Shown here: positions 915-56,560 of the stretch, piece after piece
Numbering within the stretch: position 1 is the first letter of the stretch
Layout of the letters: the number at the start of each line of letters is the position of its first letter
Assembly (NCBI GenBank): GCA_900763875.1
Contig: CAAFLX010000038.1
Location: 18,429-82,428 of the forward strand
Source: Clostridia bacterium
GTDB taxonomy: Bacteria; Bacillota; Clostridia; Christensenellales; CAG-917
Reading direction: 5' to 3'
Length of the DNA: 64,000 nt
Notes under the pieces: generated by a model
What the model was told of the DNA's origin: nothing
Databases searched by the model: none
The model's input: the letters and a program-made list of their open reading frames with translations, nothing else
Translations under genes and position numbers: made by a program

Positions 915-984
915 GCAAAAGCAACAACAATCAAAATCCATCGGCAACCCCGATGGATTTTTTTTACAACTGCGTTGCTCATTA

Positions 985-1338
985 ATTACGCCCTGAATGA
1001 GTGTGATTTCTTCCTCTACAAGGGTTGAGCGGCATGTACTCTTAAATGCAACTTCCCCTTTCCTCACGTGTTTTCCCTATCACCGTTCCCCCTCTGCGTG
1101 CCTTGAGGGAACCCACGGTGACCGCGTAGCGGGGGACAACACTCAGCACTCACATAGATTGCTATCGTCCTCTTGTTATGCCACTGCGCTTTGTGCGCCG
1201 GCTTCGCAACAGAATGGCGCAGTCGCTTGTACTATCCGTCAAGTTCGGCGTTCGCTTTTCTCGCCGCCTTGCGGCTCGCACTTTGAATAGGCACATACCG
1301 TGTATAAGAACGCTCCGAATAAGCGTTCGTTTATCCGC
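985..1338 (+). repeat. R1 structured repeat, copy A
   Basis: The core ttcctcacgtgtt...gccactgcgctttgtgcgccggcttcgcaacagaatggcgcagtcgcttgtact...gccgccttgcggctcg is shared with four other loci in this window. Confidence 0.9.
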
Positions 1339-8723: not shown

Positions 8724-8946
8724 GTATTGTCCTTGCGGACAGTGATATTGCAACTTCGTTGCAGTGATATGCACGCAGTGCGTGCGTGATATTGTCCTTG
8801 CGGACAATGAGATTGCGGCTGTGCCGCAGTTGTGGATAAATGATATCACTGCGTGATGATATCGTGCAGGCACGATGATATCGCCTGCGGCGGTGATGTC
8901 CAAACATGGTTTGGATTGCGGAAGTAGTTTTGCGGCTGTGCCGCAA
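8724..8946. repeat. R4 array: about 10 tandem short hairpins separated by TGATAT(C)
   Basis: Each unit has a 5-7 bp stem and a 2-4 nt loop, for example atcgtgc-ag-gcacgat. Perfect GATATC sites lie at 8842, 8858 and 8877. The array fills the rlmB to sigma-factor spacer. Confidence 0.85.
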
Positions 8947-12057: not shown

Positions 12058-12136
12058 CCGCGCAGAAAATCTTTGCTATCAGTTCGAGCACGGACAAAAA
12101 CTCCTGCCACAATTTCGCAAGATTGTCTGCTTGCTG
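12058..12136 (-). repeat. R3 hairpin repeat (isolated copy, inverted)
   Basis: The reverse complement matches caagcagaMaatcttgcgaaattgtggcaggagtttttg...aactgatagcaaagattttctgcg, which also occurs at 29079 and 34669. Confidence 0.85.
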
Positions 12137-15275: not shown

Positions 15276-18200
15276 TTAGCGGTCAAAATTTTTGATTATG
15301 CATGCGTCGCAAATTTCGTTGCCGTACGGTTTGAAAACGTCGCATACGTCCGCCGTTTCGTTGTCACCCTTGACAACTCCGTCACCGTCGTGGTCGTGCG
15401 CCTTGTCGGCACATTTGCACAGCGTGTAGGTTTTGCGCGCCGCAACTCCCAGATCCCAAGACAGTTCTCTCTTCACGTTGTCCCACTCTTTGTCCGAACC
15501 TTTGAAATAAATTGCCTTCAATCTCGTGCAACCTGCAAAAGCCTCTTTGTCAATATGTTTGAGCGAGGACGGGAGCGTAAGTTTTTTGAGGTTGTTCATT
15601 CTCAAAAACGCGTGAGTTGCAATGCCCACCGTGCCGTCCTTGATTTCAAGATCCACCACGCTCGACTTGTCCCCTCGATATTCATACGCAACCTTGCCGA
15701 TATACAAAATTCCGTTTTCGTTTTCTTTGTCGGCATAATACTTTGTGTGGGCAAACGCACTGCGCCCTATTGATTGCACGCTGTCCGCAACCGACACCGT
15801 TTGCAAATTTTCCGCCATATAGAACGCCTTTGCTCCAATGCTTTTCACACCGCTTTCGATGATGACTTGTTTGAGTGCGCTGTGCGCAAACGCAAACTCC
15901 CCGATTGTTTTGACATTGGACGGAATGGTCATGCTTTCGGCTTGAGTGTATGCAAACGCACCTTTGCCAACGGACGTGACGTCAAATATCTTGGTTTTTC
16001 CGTCGCTTCCGCCCCACACGAAGTCTTTTGAAATCGTGCCGTTGTCAAATGCGGCAACGAGCGTATGCGTGTTTTTGTCAATCAAGCAGTTGCTTTTGAA
16101 AATAAATGTTGCGTTGCCCTCTGCCACGACAAGCGTTTTAATCGGGCAGTGCCAAAACGCTCCTACCCCGATTTCTCGGACAGACGCAGGGATTGTCAGA
16201 CTTGTGATTTGCAACCCCTCGAACGCTCTATCGCCGATTTTCTTTACGCCCTCGCCTATGGTCAGGTCGGGAACTTTCATATCGGCTAACAGCCCTGCCT
16301 CTACATCCTCTCCAACAATTTCAACGTTTTGAACATAGGCAACACTGCCCTTTATTTTGGCAATCACTCCTGCAGGAGCAACGAGGCGTTGCAAACTCAA
16401 AGATTTGTCAAAAGCCGTATCGCCGATATTTTGCAAATCGTATGCTTGGCAATCGTTTTCCTTGCGTGTTTGGAACGTGATTTCCGTCAAATTTACGCCT
16501 GCAAACGCGCCGTTTTCAATGGTCGCGACTCTTGAGGGAATTGTGATTTTCGTCAACTGTGTTTTGCCAAATGCATTTTCGCCGATTTGGGTAAGTTGCG
16601 AATCCTCTCCGAACACCACTTCGCTCAAAGTCGAGCCGCTAAACGCGTCCTTGCCTATCGACGTCACGCTTGAGGGAATTGTGACGCTTGCAAGACCTCT
16701 GCTCTCCTGAAAAGCAGAATTGCCGATTTTTGCAATCGTCGCAGGCAAGCTGACGCCGGTGACGTCCAAACCGCTAAACGCATAATCACCGATTTCGGTT
16801 ATGTCGATTTCGTTGCCTTTGTCGTCTGTATATTTTGCAGGAATTTTGCTATTGCTTGCGCCAAGCACGACGGTGCTGCCCTTTATAAGGCAATTGTCGA
16901 TAAGTGTATAGTTTGTGTTCTCACTCGACAATTCGATATTTTTCAAGCCTCCGCCAAATGCGCATGCGCCTATACTCCTCACCCCTTTGGGCAATTTTAC
17001 GGTTTCGATTTTATCCGTCGGCAAAAATCTGCCAAATGCATAATCACCTATATAGGTCAATGATTCGAGCATACTCAAATCCAGCACTTTTTCATTTGTC
17101 GTATTGCCGTACTGCGCAAATGCGTTGTTGCCAATGGTCGTCAATTTGCTGCCCTCTTCAAAATACAAATTGGCAATGCCCGTCAAAAACGCATTATCTT
17201 TGATTGTCGTGACGTGTTGAGGAATTGTGAGCGTTATGTCTGCGCCAACCTGATTAAAACCAATGCTGAACGCCCCCGATTCGATAGTTTCAACTCCCGA
17301 GGGAATAATGCCGAAGCTACTTCCCAAAATCAAAGATTTTTCGTCATAAGATAGCAAACATGTGTCACTTGACTTGTACGCAGGATTGTTTTGCGAAACC
17401 CAAAAGCTCGCAATAAACGTGCCGAAAAACGCATTTTCTCCTATGTGGGTCAGCGTTGACGGAATAATGACGGAAATCGGGCTGACGGGGCGAATTGCGT
17501 TCAAAGAAAATGCCTCGTCTAAAATTCGGGTTGTGCCCTCTTTGAAGGTCAATTTCTTAACTCGAGATGAATCACCCTTAAAACCGCATGCGATATTGCC
17601 AAGATAGACAATGCCGTCAGGTTGGTTTTGATACCAAGCCGTATCGCTTATAAAATCGGATTCAAGCCGTACGTCTTGACCTATTTCAAGCGTAACGGTG
17701 GCAAGATTCTGCATCGTTTCTTTGGTTATCTTTCCACTCAAAATGGTAAGTTTTGAAAGATTCGCCACGGCTTTTGCGGAAAACACGTCTTCAAGCGTTC
17801 CGTTGTCAATGCTAAGCCCTGCAAAGGGTACGCACAATGTTTTTAACGCCGCTTTTTCACCGCCGACAAATGCGTCTTTGCCGATTGACGTGACGCCATC
17901 CAAAATGGTGATTTCATCAAAAGCATTGCCCAAAAACGCTTCGTTGCCGATGGAAGTCAAACTTTTCGGAAACGAAATCGCGCCCGAAAGTTTGTTATCC
18001 TTGAAAGCTCTGTCGCCGATTGATTGCAAGGTTTGAGGAAGCACAATTCTCTCTAGCGATTTGCCGTTGAAAGCGTCGTTTCCGATTCTTTTCACGCCGT
18101 CGGACAAAACCACCTCCGAAAGCGAATCGCAACCTACAAAATCGTTGCTTTTCACCTCGGACACCGAGGACGGAACAACCACCGATTTCAACTTTTTGCA

Positions 18201-18665
18201 ATCTTCAAAAGCCGCCGAACCGAAACTTTTGATTTTGCTTTGGTCATAAGATACTTTTTCCAGTGACGTACAACCCAAAAACGCGCGGCTTTCTATCTTT
18301 GAAACGGACGAGGGCAAATCGATGCTTTTCAAGGATACGCAACCGCGGAACGCGCACCATTTGATTTCGGCAAGTTTGCTGTTTTTGGCAAACTTCACTT
18401 CTTCAAGGTTGGTGCACCCATCGAATGCGCCCTCCGAAATGCTTGTAACGCTTGCAGGTATCGTTATGCTTTTGGAGTTTGGATTTTTTGGCGAAAGCAA
18501 CAAAACCGTTTTGTCTTTTGCATAATAGTTGAAATCGTCCATACCCTCAACCGTTTGCGACTGCACGGGCGGCTCGGTTGTCGACGAGGGTTTGTCGCAC
18601 GCAACAAGCGCAAGCGCAAGGGTCAAAACGGCAAGAAAAACAAGCACGTATGCAAACTTTTTCAT
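15276..18665 (-). CDS. Large BspA-type leucine-rich-repeat (LRR_5) surface lipoprotein, 1129 aa
   Basis: Has the lipobox LALVAC-D and dozens of repeats of the form IPSSVTSIGxxAFxxCxxL. The C-terminal tail is rich in Cys, Asp and His. Confidence 0.85.
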   Translation of the reverse strand: MKKFAYVLVFLAVLTLALALVACDKPSSTTEPPVQSQTVEGMDDFNYYAKDKTVLLLSPKNPNSKSITIPASVTSISEGAFDGCTNLEEVKFAKNSKLAEIKWCAFRGCVSLKSIDLPSSVSKIESRAFLGCTSLEKVSYDQSKIKSFGSAAFEDCKKLKSVVVPSSVSEVKSNDFVGCDSLSEVVLSDGVKRIGNDAFNGKSLERIVLPQTLQSIGDRAFKDNKLSGAISFPKSLTSIGNEAFLGNAFDEITILDGVTSIGKDAFVGGEKAALKTLCVPFAGLSIDNGTLEDVFSAKAVANLSKLTILSGKITKETMQNLATVTLEIGQDVRLESDFISDTAWYQNQPDGIVYLGNIACGFKGDSSRVKKLTFKEGTTRILDEAFSLNAIRPVSPISVIIPSTLTHIGENAFFGTFIASFWVSQNNPAYKSSDTCLLSYDEKSLILGSSFGIIPSGVETIESGAFSIGFNQVGADITLTIPQHVTTIKDNAFLTGIANLYFEEGSKLTTIGNNAFAQYGNTTNEKVLDLSMLESLTYIGDYAFGRFLPTDKIETVKLPKGVRSIGACAFGGGLKNIELSSENTNYTLIDNCLIKGSTVVLGASNSKIPAKYTDDKGNEIDITEIGDYAFSGLDVTGVSLPATIAKIGNSAFQESRGLASVTIPSSVTSIGKDAFSGSTLSEVVFGEDSQLTQIGENAFGKTQLTKITIPSRVATIENGAFAGVNLTEITFQTRKENDCQAYDLQNIGDTAFDKSLSLQRLVAPAGVIAKIKGSVAYVQNVEIVGEDVEAGLLADMKVPDLTIGEGVKKIGDRAFEGLQITSLTIPASVREIGVGAFWHCPIKTLVVAEGNATFIFKSNCLIDKNTHTLVAAFDNGTISKDFVWGGSDGKTKIFDVTSVGKGAFAYTQAESMTIPSNVKTIGEFAFAHSALKQVIIESGVKSIGAKAFYMAENLQTVSVADSVQSIGRSAFAHTKYYADKENENGILYIGKVAYEYRGDKSSVVDLEIKDGTVGIATHAFLRMNNLKKLTLPSSLKHIDKEAFAGCTRLKAIYFKGSDKEWDNVKRELSWDLGVAARKTYTLCKCADKAHDHDGDGVVKGDNETADVCDVFKPYGNEICDACIIKNFDR

Positions 18666-21111: not shown

Positions 21112-21187
21112 GGGGATATAGCTCAGTTGGTAGAGCGCCTGATTTGCATTCAGGAGGTCCTCGGTTCGAATCCGTGTATCTCCACCA
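21112..21187 (+). tRNA. tRNA-Ala (anticodon UGC)
   Basis: I folded the cloverleaf by hand. It has a G3:U70 pair, the anticodon loop ttTGCat, the T-loop ttcgaat and an encoded CCA. Confidence 0.9.
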
Positions 21188-21195
21188 CTCAATAT

Positions 21196-21272
21196 TGGAT
21201 TGTAGCTCAGTAGGTTAGAGCACCACCCTGATAAGGTGGGGGTCGGTGGTTCGAGTCCACTCAATCCAACCA
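21196..21272 (+). tRNA. tRNA-Ile (anticodon GAU)
   Basis: I folded the cloverleaf by hand. The acceptor stem is tggattg/caatcca, the anticodon loop is ctGATaa, and CCA is encoded. Confidence 0.9.
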
Positions 21273-21336
21273 AAAGCACTCTCAAAAAGAGTGCTTTTTC
21301 TTTGCCTTTTCGTGTACTTTGACGATTGCATCGTCC
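21253..21336 (+). repeat. 84-bp direct repeat, copy 1 (last 20 nt of tRNA-Ile, its terminator, and 36 nt beyond)
   Basis: Identical to 21417-21500 except for one mismatch (cgtgTact versus cgtgCact). Confidence 0.95.
21275..21300 (+). terminator. Rho-independent terminator after the tRNA pair (duplicated at 21439-21464)
   Basis: The stem agcactct/agagtgct is followed by a tttt run. Confidence 0.8.
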
Positions 21337-21416
21337 ACCTGTCGATGGCAGTCGAACCACCTTTCGGTCTGCACGCTGCGCTCTTGCAAATTCCATTTGC
21401 TCGCTTGCTGTTGAGC

Positions 21417-21500
21417 GAGTCCACTCAATCCAACCAAAAGCACTCTCAAAAAGAGTGCTTTTTCTTTGCCTTTTCGTGCACTTTGACGATTGCATCGTCC
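21417..21500 (+). repeat. 84-bp direct repeat, copy 2 (orphan tRNA-Ile 3' end plus terminator)
   Basis: See 21253-21336. No tRNA body precedes this copy. Confidence 0.95.
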
Positions 21501-22063
21501 TCTGCCCAAGCAAAAATCGACGCTAAGGCAACGGCAACACGCATCTTGCGTATTGTCGAGTGCCTTGCTAGATTTTTGCTTCACTAACCGCGCAACCCCT
21601 CTTCACTCTCAAATCAAGACGGACAAAACTCATGCCGCAACTCCGTGCGTGGGCTTGCTTGGTGTTTAGCGTGCAACGCACGCAAGCGGATAAACGAACA
21701 CTCATTCAAGGCGTTCTTATACACGGAATTTGCTTATTCGGAGTGCGAGCCGCAACGGCGGCGAGAAAAGCGAACGCCGAACTTGACGGGTAGTACAAGC
21801 GACTGCGCCATTCTGTTGCGAAGCCGGCGCACAAAGCGCAGTGGCATAACAAGAGGACGATACTTATCTATGTGAGTGCTGAGTGTGTCCCCACGCGGAG
21901 CGGACGCCGTGGGTTCCCTTTTAAGGGGGAACGGCGGTGGGGGAAACACGTGAGGAAGGGGGAAATTGCATTTAAGAGTACACCCCACCCACCCCTTGTA
22001 GAGGAAGAATCTACACTTATTCGGGGCGTACTTATTAACGGAATGTGCTTATTCGGAGTGCGA
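21501..22063 (-). repeat. Inverted composite: R1 copy B (21686-22063) plus the downstream scaffold (21501-21685)
   Basis: The reverse complement aligns with 34281-34875. The R3 and R5 positions hold different sequence. Confidence 0.85.
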
Positions 22064-22099
22064 ATCGCAAAGCGGCGAGTAATTGATGCCGAGCGTTGC

Positions 22100-22972
22100 T
22101 CAAAGTCGGTGCAAAAACTCGGTGTATGCGCCCAAATACGCAAACGCAGAAAAATATGTGTCTAGGGATAGGGTTTTGTCAAGAAATAAGTCTGCATTTT
22201 CGGCATCGTGCGTGGCAAGGTAGAAAAGATGCGCGCCATAATAGAAAATGTGCTTTTGAAGTTCGTCCTCGACAGGGATATTGTCGCACGCATCAAATGC
22301 GTCACCTGCAAAAAGTTTGAGGGATTGCATATAGCCCGTGTGGTGTCCTATCTCCATATCGGGGTTGAATTTTGCCATATCCGAGGCAACGCTTTTGCCT
22401 TGACGAACGCTGCACGCAACCGTCCAATAGAGAGAGGCAACGTACATATCGCCGTCGTTTTTTGAAAGCTCCACACACTCGTCAAACAGAGTCTTTGCGT
22501 CGTCAAAATCGCCTGCATAATACCTGCAACAGCCGAGCATATACTTTGGATCGAGCACGTCGTTTGTATGCTCAACGCACCAAGAAAGCTCTCTGTCGGC
22601 ATCGGCAAGACGGAGAGTGGACAGATATCTGCCGGCGCGTTTTCTTCTTGCGCCGTAGTCGTCGGGGCGCAATTCCACCGCCTTGTCGTAGCACTCTATC
22701 GCCTCGTGATAGCGCATCTGAAAGGCGAGCGCATTGCCAAGGGCGATGAGGTTGTCAAAGCTCGCGTCCTCGCCCACCTTGACTCTTGCCGCGGCGGTTT
22801 GCTCGTCGTCGGGAATTGTGCGCGATTGCGCCCTGTCCCCCAACTCGTCATCGCGCAAAGCTCTCACGTCACTTATCAAATGAGTGTGGCTGTGAGAGTG
22901 CGTGTGGGTGTGACTATGGGTGTGCGTATGCCCGTCGGTATGGGTGTGTGCGTGGGTGTGAGTAGAACTCAT
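22100..22972 (-). CDS. TPR-repeat protein with an N-terminal (His-Thr/Ser)n tract
   Basis: The N-terminus reads MSSTHTHAHTHTDGHTHTHSHTHTHSHSHTH, followed by TPR-like helices. It is the last gene of the ABC importer operon. Confidence 0.75.
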   Translation of the reverse strand: MSSTHTHAHTHTDGHTHTHSHTHTHSHSHTHLISDVRALRDDELGDRAQSRTIPDDEQTAAARVKVGEDASFDNLIALGNALAFQMRYHEAIECYDKAVELRPDDYGARRKRAGRYLSTLRLADADRELSWCVEHTNDVLDPKYMLGCCRYYAGDFDDAKTLFDECVELSKNDGDMYVASLYWTVACSVRQGKSVASDMAKFNPDMEIGHHTGYMQSLKLFAGDAFDACDNIPVEDELQKHIFYYGAHLFYLATHDAENADLFLDKTLSLDTYFSAFAYLGAYTEFLHRL

Positions 22973-28965: not shown

Positions 28966-29078
28966 ATGATATCACTTTGTGATGATATCGTGCATTGCAC
29001 GATGATATCGCACTTGGTGCGATGATATCCAACCGATGTTTGGATTGTGGAATATTCCACTTGCGCCAAAGGCGCACA
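28966..29078 (+). repeat. R4 array of GATATC-separated short hairpins
   Basis: GATATC sites lie at 28968, 28984, 29004 and 29024. The hairpins are atcac/gtgat, atcgtgc/gcacgat, atcgcac/gtgcgat and atccaa/ttggat, followed by two further palindromes. Confidence 0.85.
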
Positions 29079-29158
29079 CACCAAGCAGAAAATCTTGCGA
29101 AATTGTGGCTGGAGTTTTTGCCCCTGCTCAAAACTGATAGCAAAGATTGTCTGCGCGG
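29079..29158 (+). repeat. R3 hairpin repeat
   Basis: The stem gcagaaaatcttgc/gcaaagattgtctgc encloses a conserved loop. Confidence 0.85.
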
Positions 29159-29187
29159 TAGAAATTGTGAGAACAAGTGCGGTCGGT

Positions 29188-29270
29188 GGCAACCGCCACT
29201 GCGTTTTCGTTTCTATTTGGGGGATTCCCACGTCGCTTTGCTCCTCTGAATGACAATCTGGGCGGTTGCC
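29188..29270 (+). repeat. R5 hairpin with a conserved 63-nt loop box
   Basis: The stem ggcaaccgcc/ggcggttgcc encloses tttgggggattcccacgtcgctttgctcctctgaatgaca. Confidence 0.8.
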
Positions 29271-29286
29271 ATAACCGCAACGCCGT

Positions 29287-29657
29287 TTGAGCAAGTGAGA
29301 TGAAGAACAAGAAAGAGCCTGCCAACATAGACAGGAGCGTACTCTGTGTACGTGACTGTTTATGGGGCAGACTCTGACACAGTTATTCGCTCAATATTTT
29401 ATAGAATAGTGTGCCAAATCGATAAAGAGCGAGGAAAAACCCCTTGCGCGGCAACCCTAATGTACATAAGGTACATGAGTTGACGAGCAAAGGGCTTTAA
29501 CAATGCTATTTGCAGAGATATTGTTTGTTGTAATAAAGCCGCTATTGAGATGAAGAACAAGGAAGAGCCTGCCAACATAGACAGGAGCGTACTTGGTGTA
29601 CGTGACTGTTTATGGGGCAGGCTCTGACACAGTTATTCGCTCAATAGCGGCTTTATT
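29287..29657 (+). repeat. R2 long-hairpin array, 3 units
   Basis: The units are approximately 29287-29396, 29406-29515 (variant apex) and 29533-29657. The last 3' arm, atagcggctttatt, contains the hypA stop codon. Confidence 0.9.
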
Positions 29658-29997
29658 CTACGGCGATTTCTTTGATAAGCATCTCGTTTCCACGCACCAA
29701 ATACGTCTTTTCACTGCCGCAATGGGGGCAGATTTTGCCGTATTGGACGGTGGGATATTCTTGCTTGCAAGACTCGCAGTAGGTGACGGCATTGATCGGT
29801 TCGATTTCAAGAATGCAACCGCGCAGAAGGTCGGTGCGGTTGGCATTCCAATTCCAACAATCTATAAGTTGCTCGTTCACAACGGTGGACACTTCGCCGA
29901 TTTGCAAGACAACTTTTTTGATTTTGGTCGCTTTGTTTTCGACGGCGACGTCGCGCACGATGTCCGCGATGTGAAAAACTACGCCCAATTCGTGCAT
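29653..29997 (-). CDS. hypA: Hydrogenase/urease nickel incorporation protein HypA
   Basis: Begins MHELGVV and has the zinc site CESC..CPHCG, at the typical length of 114 aa. Confidence 0.9.
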   Translation of the reverse strand: MHELGVVFHIADIVRDVAVENKATKIKKVVLQIGEVSTVVNEQLIDCWNWNANRTDLLRGCILEIEPINAVTYCESCKQEYPTVQYGKICPHCGSEKTYLVRGNEMLIKEIAVE

Positions 29998-30006
29998 TTC
30001 AACCTC

Positions 30007-32868
30007 TTATTTGTTGGCTTTCTTTGCCGCTTTTGCCGCTTTGACCGCCTCTTTATGTTTCTTTTGAGAGGCCTTTTCCTCGGCGGTTTTTTTGCCGAAC
30101 AAGATTCTCATGCCACGCTTGAATGCGTAAGGAAGAATGACTTTGAACTTGTCTTCACTGCGCACCATAGTGGAGCATTCGGGGTGTTCTCTGTGGAGCT
30201 TGATTGCGTCAAACTCGCACTTGGTGGTGCAGACACCGCAACCGATACACTTGTTTTCGTCCACGACGCTTGCGCCGCAACCGAGGCAACGTCCTGCCTC
30301 AATCTTGACTTGCTCGGCGGTGAGAGTGCCGTGCAAATCTCTGAAGGAGTGCTTGTCGCCATCAAGCTCTTTTGCCTCTTGTCTGCCTGCGGTGTCATAA
30401 CTGTCGATGACAAGGTTGTTTTTGTCAAGCTCGACAAATTGTCTGCGATTGCGACCGATTGTCATGCTTGTGCCCGGTTGCACGAAACGATGCAAAGATA
30501 CCGCCGCCATCTTGCCTGCCTCGATTGCGTCGATTGCAAATTTCGGGCCGCTGTACACGTCGCCGCCGACAAAGATGTCAGGTTCTGCGGTTTGATAGGT
30601 GAGTGAATCCGCAACGGGATAATTGCCGTGATGGAATTCAACCTTTGTGCCTTTGAGCAAGTCACCCCACACGATGGATTGTCCGATTGCAAAGATGACG
30701 TGGCTTGCCTCGACGGTGAGGGTTTCGTTTTCGTCATAAACGGGGCTGAACTTGTTGGTGGCGGGGTCAACAACACGCAAGCACTTCTTGAACACGACTG
30801 CCTTGACCGTGCCGTCGTCGTTTTTGAGGATTTCTTTGGGGCCCCAACCGTTGTTGATTGAGATTCCGTCTTCAAGTGTTTCCTCGATTTCGTTTTTGCT
30901 TGCAGGCATGGTATCTCTCGATTCGAGGCAATACATACCGACCTCTTCACTGCCGAAACGAACGGCGGTGCGAGCGCAGTCCACGGCAACGTTTCCGCCG
31001 CCGATGACAACGGTTTTGCCATCGAGTTTTCTGTCGTGATTCTCGGTTGCATCGTGCAAGAACGAAACAGCCATATCCGTGCCGATTGCGTCCTCGCCGG
31101 GGACTCCGGGGAGCCTGCCGCCTTGGCAGCCGATTGCAATGTAGAATGCTTGATAGCCTTGCTTTCTGAGGTCTGCAATGGTGACATCCTTGCCCACATC
31201 TACACCCGTCTTAAACTCAACGCCAAGCTCGCGCAAAACGTCGATTTCCGCATCGATAACGTCTTTTTCGAGCTTGTAGGACGGAATGCCGTAAGTGAGC
31301 ATACCACCGAGTTTCTCGTTCTTTTCAAACACGGTGGGAAGATAGCCCTTGGTTGCAAGATAGTAGGCGCAAGAAAGACCTGCAGGGCCTGCGCCGATGA
31401 TTGCAATCTTTTGTCCCCAATGCTTTTCGACGTTGGACGGAATGACCACTTCGGGAACGTATCTTGTTTCGGCGTGCAAATCTTGCTCTGCGATGAACTT
31501 CTTGATGTCGTCGATTGCAACCGCCTCGTCAATCGTGCCTCTGGTGCAAGCCGCCTCGCAACGCTTGTTGCAAACGCGACCGCAGATTGCAGGGAACGGA
31601 TTGTCCTTTTTGATGAGCGCAAGAGCCTCTCTGTATTTGCCCTCTTTTGCCTTGCGAATGTAGCCTTGGACGGCGATGTGCGCAGGGCATGCCGCCTTGC
31701 ACGGGGACGTGCCCGTTTCATAGCAGTTGATGCGGTTGTTGTCCCTGTAATCTTCGTCCCACTTGTCAGGGCCCCAAGAGAGATTGTCGGGAAGTTCGTG
31801 TTTCGGATATTTGATTTCGCCTTGCTTTGTGCAAAGTTTTTGTCCGAGCTTGACCGCGCCTGCAGGGCAGAATTCCACGCACTTGCCGCAAGCGACGCAC
31901 TTGTCTTTTTCAACGCGCGCGACGTATGCGCTTCTCGACATGTTGGGCGTGTTGAAAAGTTGCGACGTGCGAAGCGCGTTGCAGACGTTGAGGTTGCAGT
32001 TGCAGATTGCAAAAATCTTGTTTTCGCCGTCGATGTTGGTGATTTGGTGAACGAAACCGTTCTTTTCGGCGCGTTGGAGAATCTCCATTGCCTCTTCATA
32101 AGTGACGTCGCGACCCTTGCCCGTTTCGCGGCAGAAGTCCGCCATATCGCCGATGCCGATGCACCACTCTTCACAGCTGTCGCCGCAGCCCTCGCCGAGC
32201 TTCGATCTGCCGTAACGGCAAGAGCAAATGCCAACGCCGAGGTGTCCCTCGTATTTTTTGAGCCAGTAGGAAATATGCTCGATGTCCATCGTGCCGTTTT
32301 CCATCTCGATGGCTTTTTCAACGGGAATGACGTGCATACCGATGCCTGCGCCTCCCGGAGGAACCATGGGCGTGACCATTGTCAAAGGAAGATACGTCAT
32401 ACGCTCGAAGAACATCGCAAGTTCGGGGTGTTCGTCAAGCTGCTTTTTGATCATATTGGTGAACTCGGCAGAGCCGGGCACGAACATCGGCAAAACGTAG
32501 CGACGCTCTTTCTTTGCGCCGGGGATAGGCCCGTCATGATCGTAGTTGTTGCCGTAGTCGTACTCGATTACACCGACATAGCTCATCTTGTCGAGAAGTT
32601 CTTGCAACTTTTCGGCACTCAATTCGGGGTTCATCTTTTTGAGATCCTCGAACGTGTAGTGTTTGCGCACCTTCATTTTGAGAGCAACGTCCGCCATCTC
32701 GTCGGTGACAACGCAACGAAGCCCCCAGTACTCGGGGTCGTCTGCCGTCACACCTTTAATCTTGTGGTCGACGCAGTCCGTGATTTTTCTTGCTAATTTG
32801 AGGATTTTTTCACTCGGATTCTTCTCGCCCATATACTTGGGTTTGAACGCCTTGCTCATCTCAGCCAT
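30007..32868 (-). CDS. Multidomain Fe-S flavoprotein: Cys-rich N-terminal domain, 4Fe-4S ferredoxin, GltD/NfnB-like FAD/NAD(P) oxidoreductase, and a C-terminal 2x[4Fe-4S]
   Basis: Contains [43 protein letters not shown] and CLGCG..CIGCGVCTTKC. The start is the ATG at 32868, after ggagaaaac. Confidence 0.85.
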   Translation of the reverse strand: MAEMSKAFKPKYMGEKNPSEKILKLARKITDCVDHKIKGVTADDPEYWGLRCVVTDEMADVALKMKVRKHYTFEDLKKMNPELSAEKLQELLDKMSYVGVIEYDYGNNYDHDGPIPGAKKERRYVLPMFVPGSAEFTNMIKKQLDEHPELAMFFERMTYLPLTMVTPMVPPGGAGIGMHVIPVEKAIEMENGTMDIEHISYWLKKYEGHLGVGICSCRYGRSKLGEGCGDSCEEWCIGIGDMADFCRETGKGRDVTYEEAMEILQRAEKNGFVHQITNIDGENKIFAICNCNLNVCNALRTSQLFNTPNMSRSAYVARVEKDKCVACGKCVEFCPAGAVKLGQKLCTKQGEIKYPKHELPDNLSWGPDKWDEDYRDNNRINCYETGTSPCKAACPAHIAVQGYIRKAKEGKYREALALIKKDNPFPAICGRVCNKRCEAACTRGTIDEAVAIDDIKKFIAEQDLHAETRYVPEVVIPSNVEKHWGQKIAIIGAGPAGLSCAYYLATKGYLPTVFEKNEKLGGMLTYGIPSYKLEKDVIDAEIDVLRELGVEFKTGVDVGKDVTIADLRKQGYQAFYIAIGCQGGRLPGVPGEDAIGTDMAVSFLHDATENHDRKLDGKTVVIGGGNVAVDCARTAVRFGSEEVGMYCLESRDTMPASKNEIEETLEDGISINNGWGPKEILKNDDGTVKAVVFKKCLRVVDPATNKFSPVYDENETLTVEASHVIFAIGQSIVWGDLLKGTKVEFHHGNYPVADSLTYQTAEPDIFVGGDVYSGPKFAIDAIEAGKMAAVSLHRFVQPGTSMTIGRNRRQFVELDKNNLVIDSYDTAGRQEAKELDGDKHSFRDLHGTLTAEQVKIEAGRCLGCGASVVDENKCIGCGVCTTKCEFDAIKLHREHPECSTMVRSEDKFKVILPYAFKRGMRILFGKKTAEEKASQKKHKEAVKAAKAAKKANK

Positions 32869-33538
32869 TGTCGTTTTCTCCTTTGAAAATTTGTATTGTT
32901 TTGTATATTCTATCTTCAAGCACGTCAAGCCCCTCCCCCGTCTTTGCGCTCACGTAGAAGATTTGCGCGTCGGGATTGAGCCTTGAAATATGCTCTTCAA
33001 ATCTTGATTTGTCAAAGTCGAACGCTTCGAGCGTGTCTATCTTTGTGACGACGATAAGGTCGCACTTTTCAAACATCAAAGGATATTTGAGAGGCTTGTC
33101 GTCCCCCTCGGGTACGGACAAAAGCATCATATTGAGGTGCGCGCCCGTGTCGAACTCGGCAGGACATACAAGGTTGCCTATGTTTTCAAGCACGATGAGG
33201 TCGCAATCGTCAAACGCCGCTTGGTTGAGTGCCTCGCTCACCATATCCGCGTCGATATGGCAAAGTCCGCCGTTGTGAATTTGCACGCTCTCTATGCCTG
33301 CGCCCTCCGCTATGCGGCGCGCGTCAACGTCAGTTTCGATGTCAACGTCCATCGCAACCACTTTGAGCTTGGTTTTGACGCTCTTCAAAAGCGCGCTCAA
33401 AAGCGTGGTCTTGCCGCTGCCCGGCGAGGACATCACGTTGAGAAGGAACGTGCCTTTGCTTTTCAAAGTCGCTCTCAATGCGTCCGCTGTCTTTTCGTTG
33501 TTTGAAAATATACTCTCTTTGACGGAAATAACTCTCAT
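32861..33538 (-). CDS. hypB: HypB-family nickel metallochaperone GTPase, paralogue 2
   Basis: Contains SSPGSGKTT, GGLCHIDA, ENIGNLVCPAEFD, EGDDKPLKYP and VTKID. Confidence 0.9.
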   Translation of the reverse strand: MRVISVKESIFSNNEKTADALRATLKSKGTFLLNVMSSPGSGKTTLLSALLKSVKTKLKVVAMDVDIETDVDARRIAEGAGIESVQIHNGGLCHIDADMVSEALNQAAFDDCDLIVLENIGNLVCPAEFDTGAHLNMMLLSVPEGDDKPLKYPLMFEKCDLIVVTKIDTLEAFDFDKSRFEEHISRLNPDAQIFYVSAKTGEGLDVLEDRIYKTIQIFKGENDNG

Positions 33539-34209
33539 TTCAAGCCCCCTCTCCACTCGTTGTAATTGTCCAGCAGATAGTCCGAAAGCGCGCCTATACC
33601 CTCGCCCGTGCGCGCAGATACCTCAAATACCTTTGCGCTCGGATTGACTCTTGCGATATATTCCTTGCATCTGTCAACGTCAAAATCAAAATACTTTGCC
33701 GTGTCGCACTTTGTGAGCACCACCAAGTCCGCAACAGAAAACATAAGCGAATATTTGAGCGGTTTGTCGTCACCCTCCGGAAGTGCCAACAACACCATTT
33801 TCAAGTGCGCACCCGTGTCGAACTCGGCAGGACAAACGAGGTTGCCGATGTTTTCCAAAAATACCAGCTCCGCACCCGTTGCAAACTCCTTGAAACCTTG
33901 CCTCGACATATCCGCGTCCAAATGGCACATACCGCCCGTGTGAAGTTGGATTGCCTCCGCACCGGCCTCACGCACCGTGTATGCGTCCACGTCGCCGTCG
34001 ATATCCGCCTCCATAACGCCAACCTTGACCTTGTCTTTCAAAGTCTTGGTGAGCGCGCATAGCAGCGTCGTCTTGCCGCTGCCCGGCGCAGACATCACGT
34101 TGACGTAGTAAACCCCTGCCTCGTCAAGCTCGGCACGGAGTTTGTTTGCATCGGCATCATTGTTTTGAATGATGCTCTCTTTCAGTTCAATTGTTCTAAT
34201 AGAATCCAT
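33535..34209 (-). CDS. hypB: HypB-family nickel metallochaperone GTPase, paralogue 1
   Basis: Contains SAPGSGKTT, GGMCHLDA, ENIGNLVCPAEFD, EGDDKPLKYS and LTKCD. Confidence 0.9.
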   Translation of the reverse strand: MDSIRTIELKESIIQNNDADANKLRAELDEAGVYYVNVMSAPGSGKTTLLCALTKTLKDKVKVGVMEADIDGDVDAYTVREAGAEAIQLHTGGMCHLDADMSRQGFKEFATGAELVFLENIGNLVCPAEFDTGAHLKMVLLALPEGDDKPLKYSLMFSVADLVVLTKCDTAKYFDFDVDRCKEYIARVNPSAKVFEVSARTGEGIGALSDYLLDNYNEWRGGLK

Positions 34210-34280: not shown

Positions 34281-34647
34281 TTGAAGTTGCACATACCGTG
34301 CATAATCACGCTACGAATGAGTGTAACTTCTTCCTCTACAAGGAGTTGGGCGTGAACCCTTAATTCAATTTCCCCCTTCCTCACGTGTTTCCCCCACCGC
34401 CGTTCCCCCTTAAAAGGGAACCCACGGCGTCCGCTCCGCGTGGGGCAACACTCAGCACTCGCATAGATTGCTATCGTCCTCTTATTATGCCACTGCGCTT
34501 TGTGCGCCGGCTTCGCAACAGAATGGCGCAGTCGCTTGTACCGTCTGTCAAGCTCGGCGTTCGCTTTTCTCGCCGCCTTGCGGCTCGCACCCTGAATAAG
34601 CACATTCCGTTAATAAGAACGCCCAGAATGAGTGTTCGCTTATCCGC
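34281..34647 (+). repeat. R1 structured repeat, copy C
   Basis: A full element including both flanking direct repeats, gcacataccgtgcataat... and gcacattccgttaataag... Confidence 0.9.
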
Positions 34648-34668
34648 TTGCGTGCAAAGCACGCTAAA

Positions 34669-34748
34669 CACCAAGCAGAAAATCTTGCGAAATTGTGGCA
34701 GGAGTTTTTGCACCTACCTAAAACTGATAGCAAAGATTTTCTGCGCGG
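34669..34748 (+). repeat. R3 hairpin repeat
   Basis: The stem is gcagaaaatcttgc/gcaaagattttctgc. Confidence 0.85.
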
Positions 34749-34778
34749 TTAGCAGACTGAAAACCTAGCAAGGCTCTT

Positions 34779-34860
34779 GGCAATCGCCACTATGCTTACG
34801 CTTCTATTTAGGGGATTCCCACGTCGCTTTGCTCCTCTGAATGACATTAGAGGCGATTGC
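34779..34860 (+). repeat. R5 hairpin with the conserved loop box
   Basis: The stem ggcaatcgcc/ggcgattgc covaries with the copy at 29188. The same loop box is present: tttaggggattcccacgtcgctttgctcctctgaatgaca. Confidence 0.8.
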
Positions 34861-34875
34861 AATTGCCTTAGCGAC

Positions 34876-35251
34876 GATTTTCAGTCGGATGAAGAACACG
34901 GAAAAGCCTGCCAACATAGACAGGAGCGTACTTGTCGTACGTGACTGTTTATGGGGCAGGCTTTGACAAAGTTATTCGCCAAATCATCTTTAATCTTGTA
35001 AAAACGCACTATTTGGATGAAGAACAAGAAAACGCCCTTTTGCGAACTCGCCTAGCGTACTTGAAGTACGTGACGGGTGAGCAAAAGGGCGTTGCCGCAG
35101 TTATTCGCCAAATCATTTATAACTTTGTAAAAACGCACTATTTGGATGAAGAACACGGAAAAGCCTGCCAACATAGACAGGAGCGTACTTGTCGTACGTG
35201 ACTGTTTATGGGGCAGGCTTTGACAAAGTTATTCGCCAAATAGTGCGTTTT
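34876..35251 (+). repeat. R2 long-hairpin array, 3 units
   Basis: The units are approximately 34876-34985, 35000-35115 and 35128-35251. The last 3' arm, atagtgcgttttt-a, contains the stop codon of the ABC/FtsX gene. Confidence 0.9.
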
Positions 35252-38200
35252 TAGTCTACGCGGAGAGCATCCACAACGTTCTTCCTCGACGCCATAATCG
35301 CAGGAATTATGCCTGAGATTATCGTCAGTGCCAAGCTGAGGCAGACGAGAATGAAGGCGTGGAGCGGATGGAAGTGCAACAGCGAGCCGATGCCTGCAAC
35401 TGCTTTGATGATGACGGACACGATTGGACAGAGAATGTAGGTGACGAGAATACCTATGAGCCCGCTTGTGAGTCCGATGAGCGAGGTTTCGGCGATAAAG
35501 ACGTTGCGTATATCCTGCTTTCGCGCGCCGATTGCGCGGAGTATGCCGATTTCACGAGTACGCTCGACAACGGAGTTGGAGGTGATGACGCCGATCATAA
35601 CGGTGGATACGACAAGAGATATTGCCGCAACCGCGATGAGCATTGCAGATACGAGGTCGAGCGTGCTGCGCATATTGACAAGGAACATTTCGGACACGTC
35701 AAAGTAGCCAATCTCGCCCTTGCCGTCGTGTTGCCATGCCTCGATATACTTGCCCGACTTAACCTTTTGATTGCTGTCGTTGGGGAACACGGTAACGTAA
35801 TACGGGCTTCTATCCGCTCCGATTGCTCTCATAAAGTAGGTGTATTGGAGCGCGGGAACGCCGCTCATTGCATAAAGTGCCGTCGAGCCTTGTTGCGAAA
35901 AGTCAACTTCGTTGTTCAAGCGCACGTTCTTGAAAACCGTCTTTTTGCCGGTGGTTGTGTTTTTGTCAAGTTCGAGTTGGCGTTTGACAAGAGTGCTCTC
36001 GCTCGCGCTCTTGAGGGTGCTTTCGGCAAGCGCGCTCGTATAGCATATGGACGAGGTGACGTAGGTGTGTTCGGTTTGCTTTTTCGCTCTTATAACGCCG
36101 ACAACTTTGATTTCATCGTTGGAATCCTCATACATCTTTTTGAGCAACGCTTGAGATTCGGTTGAATCGTCATAGCTCCACATCAACGTGCTGCTTGCTT
36201 TTTCGCTGAACGGGTCAAGAAAGCTGCTGCTACCGCCGTCTTCTTCCTCCGTTTTGCTTTTTCCGATGCCGACGTTGTTGAGATACTTGCCGCTTGCCTC
36301 GTCATAGACGTAATAGTTGTCGTTTCCCACAAGTTTGAAGGTTTGACCGAGGAAATATTCGTACGGCACGTTGTCGGTGTCCATTTTTTTGGGTTTGCCC
36401 TCGTCGTCAAAAACTATATTGCCGTTTGCGTCCTTTTCGTAAACGTCGATGCCAAATGCGTTCAGCACGTCTTTGGATATGGTGTTGTCGGAGTTTACGC
36501 AAAGCAAAACTTCGTTTTTGTTTTTGGGATAACGACTGCCCTCGCCCACAAAATCATAGGAGCGCATCGTGACTTCTTCGCTTGCGACAAGTTCTTGCCA
36601 ATACTTGGCTTGAAGTCCGTTTTCGCCGAGTACGGTGGTTGCAATCGCCGTGGTTGTCAAGGGCTTCGGTTGTTGCGATACGTCCTTGTAGGTGACGTTG
36701 CCGTCGGCGTCGTACGTCTTGCGCACAAGGTTGTACCTCAAGCCGTAGGAGATGCCGAGAGCAGTGTAATAATCCTTGGGCATCGCTTTCATATAATCGG
36801 CAAATTCCTCGGTCAACTCGTTCTTTTGAACGCCGTTCATAAAGGAAGTGACCATTGACAAAGTCATCTTTGCAATCATACTGTTTGCGCTGCCTGCGCT
36901 GCCCGACACTTTGATGTCGTCCGTATCGGGAGCGGGCTTTGTCGAGCCTTGACCGGACGGTCTTTCCATCATGCTGGACATCAAGTCCATAATCGCGCTG
37001 CTTGACACGTTGTATTGATAAACGCCAAGAGGCACGCCTGCGAGCAAGTCGTTTTCCATTCTTGCAAGGTAGAGATTGAATCCGTTGTAAATGGACAGCA
37101 CGAGCGCAAGACCTATTATGCCGATTGCGCCTGCAAAAGACGTGAGCAACGTGCGGCGTTTTTTGGACACGAGGTTTTTAAGGCTCAATCCAAACGCCAT
37201 ACCCGGACTCATAGACGTGGGCTTGAACGCCCTGTCCCTCTTCTTTTTCTTTTTGGAAAGGCTGTTGAGGCCGAGCTTGTCAAAGAGCGCGTCCGTCTCC
37301 TCTCCGACGTTTTTCATTGCGTTTTTACGCTTGCGATTCGACACCTTTTTCTTTTTGGGCGCGTCCTCGCAATGTTGTTCGGTTTGAGGGTTTATGCTGT
37401 CATTTTGAGCGGTTGGAGTGCTTGTTTGGACATTTTGTGCATCGTCAACGTCGTCTGTCGTAACGATGCCGAACACTGATTTTTCGTCGTCGCTTGCGAT
37501 TGAAATTTCCTCGTCTTGCACCGTGGACACGTCGTCCGTTTGCGCCGTTTCGCCGCTCTCGACGTCCTCTTTTTTCTCGATTTCGGGATAGAAAGGATTG
37601 GTATCTTCGATGAGCTGTCCGTCCTTAAAACGGCAAATACGCGTGGCGTATTGATAGGCAAGTTCGGCGTTGTGCGTGACCATAATGACGAGGCGATTTT
37701 TGGAAATCTCTTGCAATATATCCATAACCTGCACGCTAAGCTCGCTGTCCAACGCGCCCGTCGGCTCGTCCGCCAAAATGATTTTGGGGTCGTTGACGAT
37801 TGCACGCGCAATCGCTACGCGCTGCATTTGACCGCCCGAAAGTTGGTTGGGCTTTTTGTCAATCTCCTCGTGCATATTGACTTTGTGAAGAGCGGCAACC
37901 GCCTTTGCTCTTCTCGCCTTTTTCTTTTCGCCCACAAGGCTCAAGGCAAGCTCGACGTTTTCAAGTACGGTGAGGTGAGGAATGAGGTTGTAGCTTTGAA
38001 AAACAAAACCGATGGTTGCGTTGCGGTAGGCGTCCCAGTGCTCGTCGTCGAAATCGGCAGTGGAAACTCCGCCGATGACGAGATCGCCCGACGTATATCT
38101 GTCAAGACCGCCTATGATGTTGAGCATGGTCGTTTTGCCGCAACCGCTCGGGCCTAGAATCGCCACAAACTCGCTTTCGCGGAAGTTGAGTGACACGCTC

Positions 38201-39351: not shown

Positions 39352-39731
39352 TGGGGGGGGGTGAACTCTAAATTGCAACTTCCCCCTTCCTCACGTGTTT
39401 TGTTCGTACTCTACAAGAGTTGGGCGGGGTGTACTCTAAATTGCAACTTCCCCTTTCCTCACGTGTTTTCCCCATCACCGTTCCCCCTTAAAAGGGAACC
39501 CACGGTGACCGCGTAGCGGGGGACAACACTCAGCACTCACATAGATAAGTATCGTCCCCTTGTTATGCCACTGCGCTTTGTGCGCCGGCTTCGCAACAGA
39601 ATGGCGCAGTCGCTTGTACTATCCGTCAAGTTCGGCGTTCGCTTTTCTCGCCGCCTTGCGGCTCGTGTTCCGTCTTTGAAGTTACACATACCGTGTATAA
39701 GAACGCCCTGAATAATTGTTCGTTTATCCAC
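39352..39731 (+). repeat. R1 structured repeat, copy D (with an internal 68-bp tandem duplication)
   Basis: ctctaaattgcaacttccccYttcctcacgtgtttt occurs at 39366 and 39434. The core is otherwise as in copies A and E. Confidence 0.9.
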
Positions 39732-39732
39732 A

Positions 39733-39812
39733 ATCCAAACAAAGTTTGGATATCATCGTGCAACGCACGATATCATCACGAAGTGATATCACCGCAGCAG
39801 GCGATATCATTT
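39733..39812 (-). repeat. R4 array of GATATC-separated short hairpins (inverted relative to 28966)
   Basis: GATATC sites lie at 39749, 39769, 39785 and 39803. The linker is ATC rather than GAT. The array abuts the M28 peptidase stop codon at 39811. Confidence 0.85.
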
Positions 39813-51152: not shown

Positions 51153-51261
51153 TCGATTTTTGTAAATTTGAACAACTCACGCGGCTGTAAATCGGAGCGT
51201 TTAATCACTCCTGCTATCACAGCAGTTGATTAAAACTGCGCCAAATCTTGGTTAGAAAATG

Positions 51262-51384
51262 AAAACCGCGATATTGAGATGAAGAACAAGGAAAAACCGC
51301 TCGCACAGATAGGAGCGTACTTATCGTACGTGACTATTTGTGTGAGCGGTTTTGACACAGTTATTCGCTCAATAGCGCGGTTTT
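51262..51384 (+). repeat. R2 long hairpin, single unit
   Basis: The outer stem is aaaaccgcgatattgag/ctcaatagcgcggtttt. The 3' end contains the stop codon of the phosphoesterase gene. Confidence 0.9.
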
Positions 51385-56003: not shown

Positions 56004-56119
56004 ATTCCCTCTAATATCGATTTTGCGCCTACAATTATATCACGAAACCCACCCTTTCGCAATACGCGCGCAATATTATGTTATATTAAATATACATATA
56101 ATATGGTATTTTTATTGGC

Positions 56120-56560
56120 TTGAAGTTGCACATTGCGTGTATAAGTGCGCTTTGAATAGTGAAGATTCTTCCTCTACAAGGGGTTGGCGTTGTGCACCCT
56201 TAATTAGATGCGCCCCCTCTTTCCCTATCGGGCTTTGTTCGTCCTCTACAAGAGTTGGACGGCGAGAACTCTAAATGTAATTTTCCCCTTTCCTCACGTG
56301 TTTTCCCCATCACCGTTCCCCCTCTGCGTGCCTTGAGGGAACCCACGGTGACCGCGTAGCGGGGGACAACACTCAGCACTCACATAGATAAGTATCGTCC
56401 CCTTGTTATGCCACTGCGCTTTGTGCGCCGGCTTCGCAACAGAATGGCGCAGTCGCTTGTACTATTCGTCAAGTTCGGCGTTCGCTTTCTCGCCGCCTTG
56501 CGGCTCGTGTTCCGTCTTTGAAGTTGCACATACCATTTATAAATGCACTTTGAAAGTGTT
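56120..56560 (+). repeat. R1 structured repeat, copy E
   Basis: A full element with a partially duplicated 5' module. It has a 1-nt deletion (cgctttctcgcc) relative to the other copies. Confidence 0.9.

Follow-up and report, generated by a model that had tools for sequence, protein, structure and literature searches.

The BOX elements of Streptococcus pneumoniae (boxA-boxB-boxC) are multicopy, non-coding, intergenic and modular, with variable tandem internal units; they have no linked transposase, and an RNA fold is predicted for them in transcripts shared with their neighbours. Here we describe an element, R1, that resembles BOX in these respects and is present five times in a 64,000-nt stretch of DNA from a Clostridia bacterium (assembly GCA_900763875.1, contig CAAFLX010000038.1, positions 18,429 to 82,428), hereafter called the window. 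The likeness is one of behaviour only: R1 has a larger core (230-300 nt) and a multi-helix fold with a long-range helix, its compensatory conservation extends across many species and not one species group, and its hosts are uncultured gut Clostridia. The REP/BIME and NIME/Correia-type mosaics also resemble R1, in that several repeat families are mixed between genes, with a bias towards the 3′ side of genes and towards gene pairs that are convergent or in tandem. REPs, however, are imperfect palindromes of 20-40 nt that function in either orientation and co-evolve with RAYT transposases, whereas R1 is non-palindromic, about ten times longer and orientation-biased, with no RAYT linked within 1.5 kb.

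Structured RNAs offer further comparisons. HEARO and the omega RNAs of IscB and TnpB (OMEGA, IS200/IS605) are, like R1, structured RNAs of 200-300 nt with many copies, some without a protein gene, and they share with it a sharp conservation boundary, similar hairpins at both ends and no terminal inverted repeats. In contrast, R1 has no Rfam HEARO or IS605-orfB hit and no adjacent IscB or TnpB, and its flanks in the window are repeated modules. Class C (IIC) group II introns are likewise structured RNAs found near intrinsic terminators in a preferred orientation, but R1 has no domain V/VI signature and no reverse transcriptase, is one third to one half the size of introns without an open reading frame (ORF), and lies 15-78 nt from the terminator, whereas IIC introns lie at the U-tract. 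Gut-1 (RF01706) occurs in the same kind of organism, with hits adjoining copies of R1 and of the separate module X (see below), but it is much smaller (77 nt) and has no sequence or structural similarity to R1. In sum, R1 behaves like the BOX or BIME mosaics, with a far more elaborate fold. The reading that we favour, with a confidence just short of even, is that R1 is an undescribed family of multicopy, modular, structured intergenic elements, transcribed within the 3′ untranslated regions (UTRs) of uncultured gut Clostridia.

Five non-coding copies of R1 in the window

The five copies are where the initial annotation of the window had placed them: A at 980-1338(+), B at 21686-22096(-), C at 34281-34647(+), D at 39352-39731(+) and E at 56119-56566(+). 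A 30-mer of the core matches the window five times at up to three mismatches, while none of 100 dinucleotide shuffles contained any match. The cores are 230-240 nt long and share 86-97% pairwise identity; since no two window copies are identical, we see no recent burst of R1. The annotation had also called the element non-coding, and six-frame translation of eight copies, which differ by indels of 1, 6 and 8 nt, indeed gave no open frame common to the copies, so that a protein-coding gene or pseudogene is ruled out. The alignment of the window copies contains both the 1-nt deletion of copy E and the difference in loop length that had been reported, copies A and E having a loop of 16 nt and the other three one of 8 nt.

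As a whole unit, copy A (980-1338, + strand in the annotated orientation) scores 402 bits with nhmmer over profile positions 4-354, and the alignments divide it into a partial X (983-1005), a leader L (1006-1052), the core (1053-1287) and an X (1290-1336). The core, TTCCCC...CTTTGAA on the + strand, is the part conserved across genera in the alignment of 55 distinct copies. Copy B, on the minus strand, consists of a partial X, L, a core at about 21738-21964 and an X, and begins 4 nt past the stop codon of a TPR gene (22100-22972). Copy C, on the + strand, has an X′, L, a core at 34370-34596 and an X, and lies between the stop codon of an ABC/FtsX gene (35251) and the promoter-like site of a CobW/HypB gene (34259-34231, minus strand). 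The other + strand copies carry duplications: a 68-nt leader/tail piece (39354-39400; repeat family D4) precedes the core (39448-39680) and X (39683-39729) of copy D, and copy E comprises an X′, a duplicated leader, the core (56283-56522) and a degenerate X.

The genes flanking R1 in the window are unrelated housekeeping genes (YpeB, TPR, CobW/HypB GTPase, ABC/FtsX transporter, M28 peptidase and SDR), and Spo0A is encoded by the host. Near copy C, the genes of CobW/HypB/UreG-type GTPases are duplicated in tandem (32861-33556 and 33535-34209; families D7, D8 and D16), a pair that is also present in the fetched locus L042.

R1 in other genomes

An exact 27-mer of the window core had no match in the GTDB species representatives and matched three other loci in JGI metagenomes. 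Outside the window, the family was visible only through spurious ORFs and a shorter tail motif. In the protein collection, 44 clusters (P0001-P0044; 90-145 aa, no Pfam domain) are translations of R1, that is, spurious ORFs with 49-92% identity, and their contigs yielded diverged R1 copies. The most conserved stretch, TCCCCNTTCCTCACGTGTTT, occurs among the matches listed for the GTDB representatives at more than 110 loci in at least 21 species-representative metagenome-assembled genomes (MAGs), with up to 12 motif-bearing loci per genome, many of them at contig ends. These genomes are labelled as uncultured Clostridia or Clostridiales, Firmicutes CAG:475, CAG:238 or Christensenella sp. UBA6880, together with some evidently mislabelled bins. 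A nhmmer profile search gave 176 hits, 58 of which are non-redundant near-full copies.

A covarying fold

We propose 36 base pairs for R1, which are paired in 89.3% of cases over the 55 distinct copies, compared with 35-50% when the partners are slid. Compensatory change is found in 20 of these pairs (13.4 ± 1.8 in shuffles), double-change cells number 133 (35.9 ± 4.8 in shuffles), and the covariation score is 0.211 against 0.107 for shuffled data, a value that was reached in 0 of 500 shuffles. Domain A alone, in 45 sequences, is 89.4% paired, with 50 double-change cells against 15.1 ± 2.8 and again no shuffle out of 500 as high. The initial annotation had judged the element to be structured from the window copies, and two of the helices it named, H1 and H2 below, are now backed by covariation across many genomes. 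An elaborate fold with compensatory change across many species implies selection on structure.

Domain A is a three-way junction at 1068-1142 on the + strand of copy A, the copy and strand to which all coordinates of the fold refer. It is closed by P1 (1068-1072 + 1074-1077 / 1133-1136 + 1138-1142), of sequence GTGTTyCCCC/GGGGnAACAC, which is 97% paired and shows T-A to C-G covariation in 18 of 45 sequences. The central pair of H1 (1080-1084 / 1117-1121) takes all four Watson-Crick forms (CGCCG/CGGCG, CGTCG/CGACG, CGACG/CGTCG and CGGCG/CGCCG); among the window copies, the paired swap from tcaccg/cggtga to cgccg/cggcg is present as described. H2 (1085-1090 / 1107-1112) has the stem GTTCCC/GGGAAC, and H3 (1122-1125 / 1129-1132) varies between CCGC/GCGG, CCTGC/GCAGG, GGTGC/GCACC and GCCC/GGGC. 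A further helix had been proposed between ggggac and gtcctc; the complementarity exists in the sequence, but GGGG is part of P1, and since this G-run belongs to P1 neither the helix nor the strand argument built on it is supported.

The central domain is enclosed by a long-range helix, PLR (1145-1251; pairs 1145-1251, 1146-1249, 1147-1248, 1149-1247, 1152-1244 and 1153-1243). Five of its six pairs covary (e.g. GC 33 / AU 19; CG 42 / UA 11), at 91-97% paired, and a comparison of copies A and C shows the pairs changing each on its own. Within it lies the variable hairpin S3 (1182-1232), whose stem in the window, actgcgc/gcgcagt (1183-1189 / 1217-1223, with an inner TGCG/CGCA stem), is invariant there, as had been noted. 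In other genomes, the anchors TTATGCCAC and TTGTAC enclose at least four unrelated stem sequences, each of which forms a hairpin. The terminal hairpin H7 (1263-1275) is 95% paired, with the variants GCCGC/GCGGC, GTCGC/GCGAC and GGCGC/GCGCC; one of its pairs is CG 39 / GC 5 / UA 4, and the flanking pair 1260-1278 (alignment columns 398-418) covaries as CG 44 / GC 8. The window coordinates of this flanking pair were counted from the sequence of copy A, there being no indels between H7 and either column.

An unpaired pyrimidine tail, TCCCCYTTCCTCAC (GUGAGGAARGGGGA on the other strand), occupies 1054-1067 (+) within the invariant columns 1-17, and its last three bases form with the first three of P1 the palindrome CACGTG (1065-1070). 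Copies found independently of the motif have C/U-rich variants of the tail. Conservation begins sharply at TTCCCC in the alignment of 55 copies; beyond this boundary lie unrelated AT-rich sequence in distant copies and a shared 45-nt leader module in the window and close relatives.

Larger domains are added in some copies. A structured insertion of 82 nt follows CACGTGTTT in L011 (copy at 17957-18502), L012, L017, L020, L031, L047, L067, L073 and L120. It has the hairpins TTGC/GCAA and CAACACAT/ATGTGTTG, the second of which covaries with CAACTCGTCC/GGACGGGTTG. L011 and L120 have, in addition, a purine-rich insertion of about 150 nt ahead of the 3′ strand of PLR, and in some copies the central domain is replaced by three hairpins.

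The helices were derived from mutual information and local inspection and then counted. An automatic stack search was too noisy in G/C-rich runs. The fold covers domain A, PLR, S3 and H7 and is partial in the P1-S3 segment and the S4 linker. RNAalifold, run on a MAFFT alignment of full units, returned one hairpin only, because the variable hairpins are misaligned.

The folding strand

The initial annotation took as sense the strand on which copy A reads forward (the annotated strand), whereas most of our tests favour its reverse complement, which is more likely the folding strand in the family and probably so in copy A. Where a pair alternates between A-U and G-C, the intermediate state reads A.C on the annotated strand, corresponding to G.U on the complement, in about 16 cells against 4. 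H2 is extended by two G.U pairs on the complement only (59 cells), and the four-base loops of H3 read GCAA, GUAA and GCGA on this strand. The complement is also rich in G (34.8%) and A (25.7%), and structured RNAs are typically G- and A-rich. The placement of R1 among genes and terminators, described in the next section, points to the complement as well. Raw folding energy is lower for the complement in 52 of 55 copies, but it was dropped as a test after a shuffle control: as the shuffle-corrected z-scores of the two strands are similar, the gap in raw energy reflects base composition.

Position relative to genes, terminators and promoters

In the 12 loci with supplied gene calls, the complement of R1 is co-oriented with both neighbours in 7, lies between convergent genes in 4, has the opposite co-orientation in 1 and is never between divergent genes. 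We rely on these 12 loci for orientation because our own calls, based on ORFs and codon bias, are unreliable across mixed genomes (thrS was miscalled in L013). Canonical terminators that point towards the 5′ end of the annotated strand occur within 160 nt of it in 13 of 47 copies, at a spacing of 15-78 nt, 10 of these 13 being bidirectional, and canonical terminators follow the 3′ end of this strand in 3 of 47. Read on the complement, a terminator stands beyond the 3′ end of the element in 10 of 47 copies, and in 2 of 47 one separates the element from the upstream gene.

Locus A illustrates this arrangement. R1 is bounded there on one side by the stop codon of YpeB and on the other by a terminator that the convergent gene shares, a bidirectional intrinsic terminator at 933-965 between gene 108-914 and copy A, which on the minus strand is downstream of the R1 reverse complement. 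The same arrangement is found in L016, from a second species whose flanking proteins are 70% identical, so that the copy has been kept in both. At locus E, the window has R1 without a terminator-like site, and the relative L011 has a canonical terminator without R1; the downstream promoter is conserved in both.

A consensus sigma-70-type scan found no promoter-like site in or immediately upstream of copies A, C, D and E. The promoter-like sites nearby fit the neighbouring gene at locus C (34259-34231) and fall inside a hairpin array (the ATATCA array described below) at locus D, and the only terminator-like sites inside the elements are weak 5-pair stems on the minus strand, at 34440-34423 in copy C and at 39513-39501 and 39516-39500 in copy D. 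With its complement usually placed between stop codon and terminator, R1 would be transcribed in the 3′ UTR of the upstream gene, without a promoter of its own.

A riboswitch or T-box leader is not supported: the downstream genes are unrelated (TrkH, IF3, PlsX, CobW-type GTPase, DnaE and others) and several copies lie between convergent genes. As a separate observation on terminators in the window, two tRNA genes at 21112-21269 / 21252-21500 are followed by an 85-nt piece with a canonical terminator hairpin. This piece is duplicated, its two copies lying 164 nt apart and being 99% identical.

Known families and linked genes

None of the 4227 covariance models of Rfam 15 matches R1 at the gathering threshold on either strand, in line with the novelty that the initial annotation had supposed; in the whole window, only the two tRNAs and Gut-1 were found at this threshold. 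Permissive searches (E up to 10 for copy A, up to 5 for the L017 array and up to 0.5 for four variant loci) gave no credible match to R1, the sole overlap being a chance Antizyme_FSE hit of 20 bits against a cutoff of 40. In the literature we found no description of the motif or of multicopy structured RNAs in Clostridia, although R1 may be among the thousands of RNA candidates that one study catalogued from microbiomes (PMC8040213).

No gene family recurs beside R1. The 857 ORFs near about 120 loci cluster into spurious ORFs within the element and housekeeping orthologues (such as DnaE), and no transposase or integrase recurs within 1.5 kb, in agreement with the annotation of the window, nor does any RAYT (TnpA-REP), reverse transcriptase, IscB or TnpB. 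An IS200/IS605-derived element with an omega RNA is not supported by this set, in which no iscB, tnpB or tnpA is adjacent to a copy. Class C group II introns are not supported either, with no Rfam group II hit on any copy and no D5-like hairpin in the alignment, nor is a REP/BIME unit, since the R1 core, at 230-300 nt, is not self-complementary as a whole.

Among the three explanations offered initially, a BOX/MITE-like mosaic is the closest in behaviour, but its MITE half is not supported. Copies A and D show internal hairpins only, their ends being direct repeats and not terminal inverted repeats. Among the flanks of 52 copies, no short duplication recurs consistently at the target site and no tetranucleotide is conserved; the words that the flanks do share are parts of X or of AGTGAGTGC modules. 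A guide-RNA scaffold is not borne out, because the sequence adjoining the boundary in the window copies is a repeated module instead of a unique guide, and R1 has no linked effector gene. A trans-acting multicopy small RNA (sRNA) is possible but not favoured, as discussed below.

A mosaic of intergenic modules

The initial annotation also had R1 as multicopy and, in one of its candidate explanations, as mosaic, and both descriptions fit the wider family, in which modules are shuffled, units occur in tandem and loci differ by presence, absence and inversion. The direct repeats said to bracket each copy do exist (40-56 bp, 311-315 bp apart; families D5 and D14), but they are not the ends of the element: they are module X, which also occurs alone. 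In copy A, this module lies with TTTATCCGC at 1290-1340 (+; family D5) and, according to an inverted-arm search, forms an imperfect hairpin with 19-nt arms (1296-1314 / 1322-1340). X and the TTTATCCGC hairpin that follows it are also found at 34596-34650, 39689-39735 and 21685-21730; X is solitary in L011, L020, L070 and L087, and forms the junction between tandem units in L017, L012 and L087. In other subfamilies, the 3′ flank of R1 has a different hairpin, built on a common AGTGAGTGC word that is repeated about 28 nt upstream of the core.

L017 has three diverged tandem R1 units where the orthologous L007 has one; Tandem Repeats Finder detected nothing in this array because the units are too diverged. 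At locus D, R1 is absent from L052, which has other repeat modules instead, between flanking proteins that are 85-89% identical.

Turnover of this kind could also come from a non-autonomous mobile element whose fold is recognised by a trans-acting enzyme, its structure being kept for propagation and not for the host. It might be an RNA-level retroelement that, like class C group II introns, inserts beside intrinsic terminators, or an orphan omega-RNA-like scaffold in ORF-less IS200/IS605-like elements. We regard this as rather unlikely. R1 has many copies per genome, at which contigs often break, and the window paralogues resemble each other (363-402 bits) more than the orthologous copy in L016 (260 bits), yet there is no sign of a recent burst and the L017 tandem units are strongly diverged. 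Orthologous loci differ by presence, absence or inversion, but the copy at locus A has been kept across species. At one specific end, 13 of 47 copies have a terminator 15-78 nt away, against 3 of 47 at the other end, which speaks for this reading; no target-site duplication or conserved flanking tetranucleotide was seen. The sharp conservation boundary and the similar hairpin-bearing modules in direct orientation at both ends also speak for it, and the invariant unpaired segments with optional peripheral domains recall ribozymes or ribonucleoprotein (RNP) scaffolds; against this, the flanks at the boundary in the window are repeated modules and not unique guides, and Rfam gave no hit to group II intron domains, HEARO or IS605-orfB RNAs at E up to 5-10. 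Nor does any mobilising enzyme gene recur within 1.5 kb of about 120 loci. No similar DNA was found in 50,697 phage records or 72,556 plasmid records, and neither motif is present in IMG/VR viral contigs, by which a phage or plasmid origin of R1 is ruled out.

Besides R1, which is its largest module, the intergenic mosaic contains X, the families D2/D3/D6/D11 and D12/D9, arrays of variable hairpins, and Gut-1. The second repeat family (D2, D3, D6 and D11), with a unit of about 120 nt, is found at 1393-1632, 29285-29663, 34874-35259, 51221-51391 and 56655-56694; its D3 piece starts exactly at the stop codons of minus-strand genes (1624, 35251, 51383 and 56684), and it has weak terminator-like hairpins on the minus strand. 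The third family, D12/D9, is found at 29078-29288 and 34668-34879, inverted at 12083-12136, and at about 10450-10500 in L007 and 4830-5040 in L052. It often follows the X hairpin (TTTATCCGCT - hairpin - ACACCAAGCAG...) and, at the orthologous D locus of a relative, takes the place of R1. Gut-1 has a hit at 8740-8818, inside a 65-nt tandem pair (8725-8765 / 8790-8830), and another in L087 at 1488-1568, beside copies of R1 and X; Gut-1-like sequence also lies at about 4650-4750 in L052, at the position orthologous to copy D. Hitherto an orphan motif of gut metagenomes, Gut-1 looks like a further module of the intergenic mosaic of this lineage.

Hairpin arrays with variable stems (for example CCAAAC/GTTTGG, GTGC/GCAC and TTGCGC/GCGCAA) and a constant ATATCA(C/T) spacer occur at 28967-29051 and 39727-39791, and at about 10260-10360 in L007 and 17900-17960 in L011; a constant spacer with a varying palindrome is the reverse of REP. 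The mixing of R1 with such hairpin-rich families, these arrays included, in the same intergenic regions would fit a fold that forms in single-stranded DNA, as a large REP/BIME-like or single-strand-origin-like element that is recognised in the course of replication or by an HUH-type enzyme and whose orientation tracks the direction of replication. The orientation bias could then reflect the co-orientation of genes with replication, and the cumulative GC skew, which falls almost throughout the window (net -0.48), fits a single replichore. Copy B, however, is inverted relative to C, D and E inside what the skew suggests is one replichore. Irregular, bulged long-range helices are typical features of RNA, as are GNRA-type loops and optional domains, and no RAYT or TnpA gene is linked within 1.5 kb. 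We therefore consider a DNA-level fold very improbable.

Discussion

R1 matches no known RNA family and probably represents either a structured RNA or a mobile repeat that is new. In our preferred reading, each unit (about 280 nt) is built on a fold of about 230-300 nt, comprising the P1/H1/H2/H3 junction, PLR, a hairpin with swapped stems, a terminal hairpin and optional inserted domains. Its complement usually lies past the stop codon of a co-oriented gene and ahead of an intrinsic terminator or the next promoter. Some loci have kept their copies for a long time, others have lost, replaced or inverted them, and recombination and tandem duplication reshuffle the modules (S3 stem type, X hairpin, leader and other repeat families). 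Tentatively, the fold may act in cis on the host transcript as a docking module between RNA and protein or between RNA and ribosome, which would present the conserved unpaired purine tail GUGAGGAARGGGGA; this tail could pair over 9-10 bases with the 3′ end of 16S ribosomal RNA (rRNA), CCUCCUUUCU. The fold may also protect or define the 3′ end of the mRNA. REP/BIME elements have known roles in mRNA 3′-end protection and attenuation, which makes a cis function plausible for R1, and at locus E the element stands in the place of a terminator.

Several points weigh against this reading. The anti-Shine-Dalgarno pairing of the tail is a speculative step of our own, and the invariance of the tail is partly a matter of ascertainment because most loci were fetched by the tail motif. 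For a simple 3′-end stabiliser, the fold with its invariant unpaired segments would be needlessly elaborate. The helices were in part derived from the same sequences in which they were counted, and the shuffle control ignores phylogeny. With crude gene calls on 42 loci, the orientation bias is weaker, at 17 to 10. Copy B is reversed, its annotated strand lying directly after a co-oriented gene, and R1 at locus C is inverted in relatives (flanking proteins of the C and D relatives 76-89% identical), so that a strictly strand-specific cis function at every locus is excluded. Finally, some features favour the annotated strand: the shuffle-corrected z-scores are similar but -1.95 there against -1.44 on the complement, a variant central domain has a GAAA tetraloop and a variant tail a CC[UUCG]GG mini-hairpin on that strand, and an AT-rich -10-like hexamer stands 6-7 nt upstream of the sharp conservation boundary.

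The last group of features would be expected if the copies were independently transcribed, trans-acting RNAs read from the annotated strand and starting at the conservation boundary. Their unpaired 5′ end, UCCCCYUUCCUCAC, which resembles the 16S anti-Shine-Dalgarno, would pair with the ribosome-binding sites of mRNAs. C-rich seeds are known from RsaE/RoxS, LhrC and the streptococcal csRNAs, as are tandem and multicopy sRNA families. Although most copies have the hexamer (TAAATT, TAATTG or CATAAT) ahead of the sharp TTCCCC start, no sigma-70-type promoter lies in or just upstream of copies A, C, D and E; similarly, 13 of 47 copies are shielded from the preceding gene by a terminator that lies upstream, but only 3 of 47 have one after the 3′ end. 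The slightly better z-score and the GAAA and UUCG loops are set against a composition (35% C, 23% G) that is unusual for a folded RNA and A.C mismatches that outnumber G.U on this strand. At 280 nt, with a long-range fold and tens of copies, R1 is also far outside the known seed-type sRNAs, and most copies would be antisense to nothing in particular. Such trans-acting RNAs are thus an unlikely explanation.

It is possible, if doubtful, that R1 founds a class of large structured RNAs that is new and has an activity of its own, whether as a ribozyme, as the RNA core of an RNP that propagates at the RNA level, or as one whose Shine-Dalgarno-like or anti-Shine-Dalgarno-like tail contacts the ribosome. 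A whole lineage of uncultured gut Clostridia would then carry tens of copies of it, placed in 3′ UTRs of housekeeping genes.

To our knowledge, few large, strongly covarying RNA folds of bacteria are still undescribed. OLE, GOLLD, ROOL, HEARO and raiA each opened new biology, HEARO being the guide RNA of IscB nucleases. In practical terms, short-read assemblies of an abundant, uncultured lineage of the gut break at copies of R1, which also give rise to spurious ORF calls in a public protein collection. R1 combines a complex fold with the behaviour of a mosaic repeat (tens of copies, tandem arrays and shuffled modules) and a consistent placement between stop codon and terminator. A fold that acts on the host transcript would be a new kind of 3′-UTR device; one that serves propagation would point to an undescribed mobility system without a linked gene.

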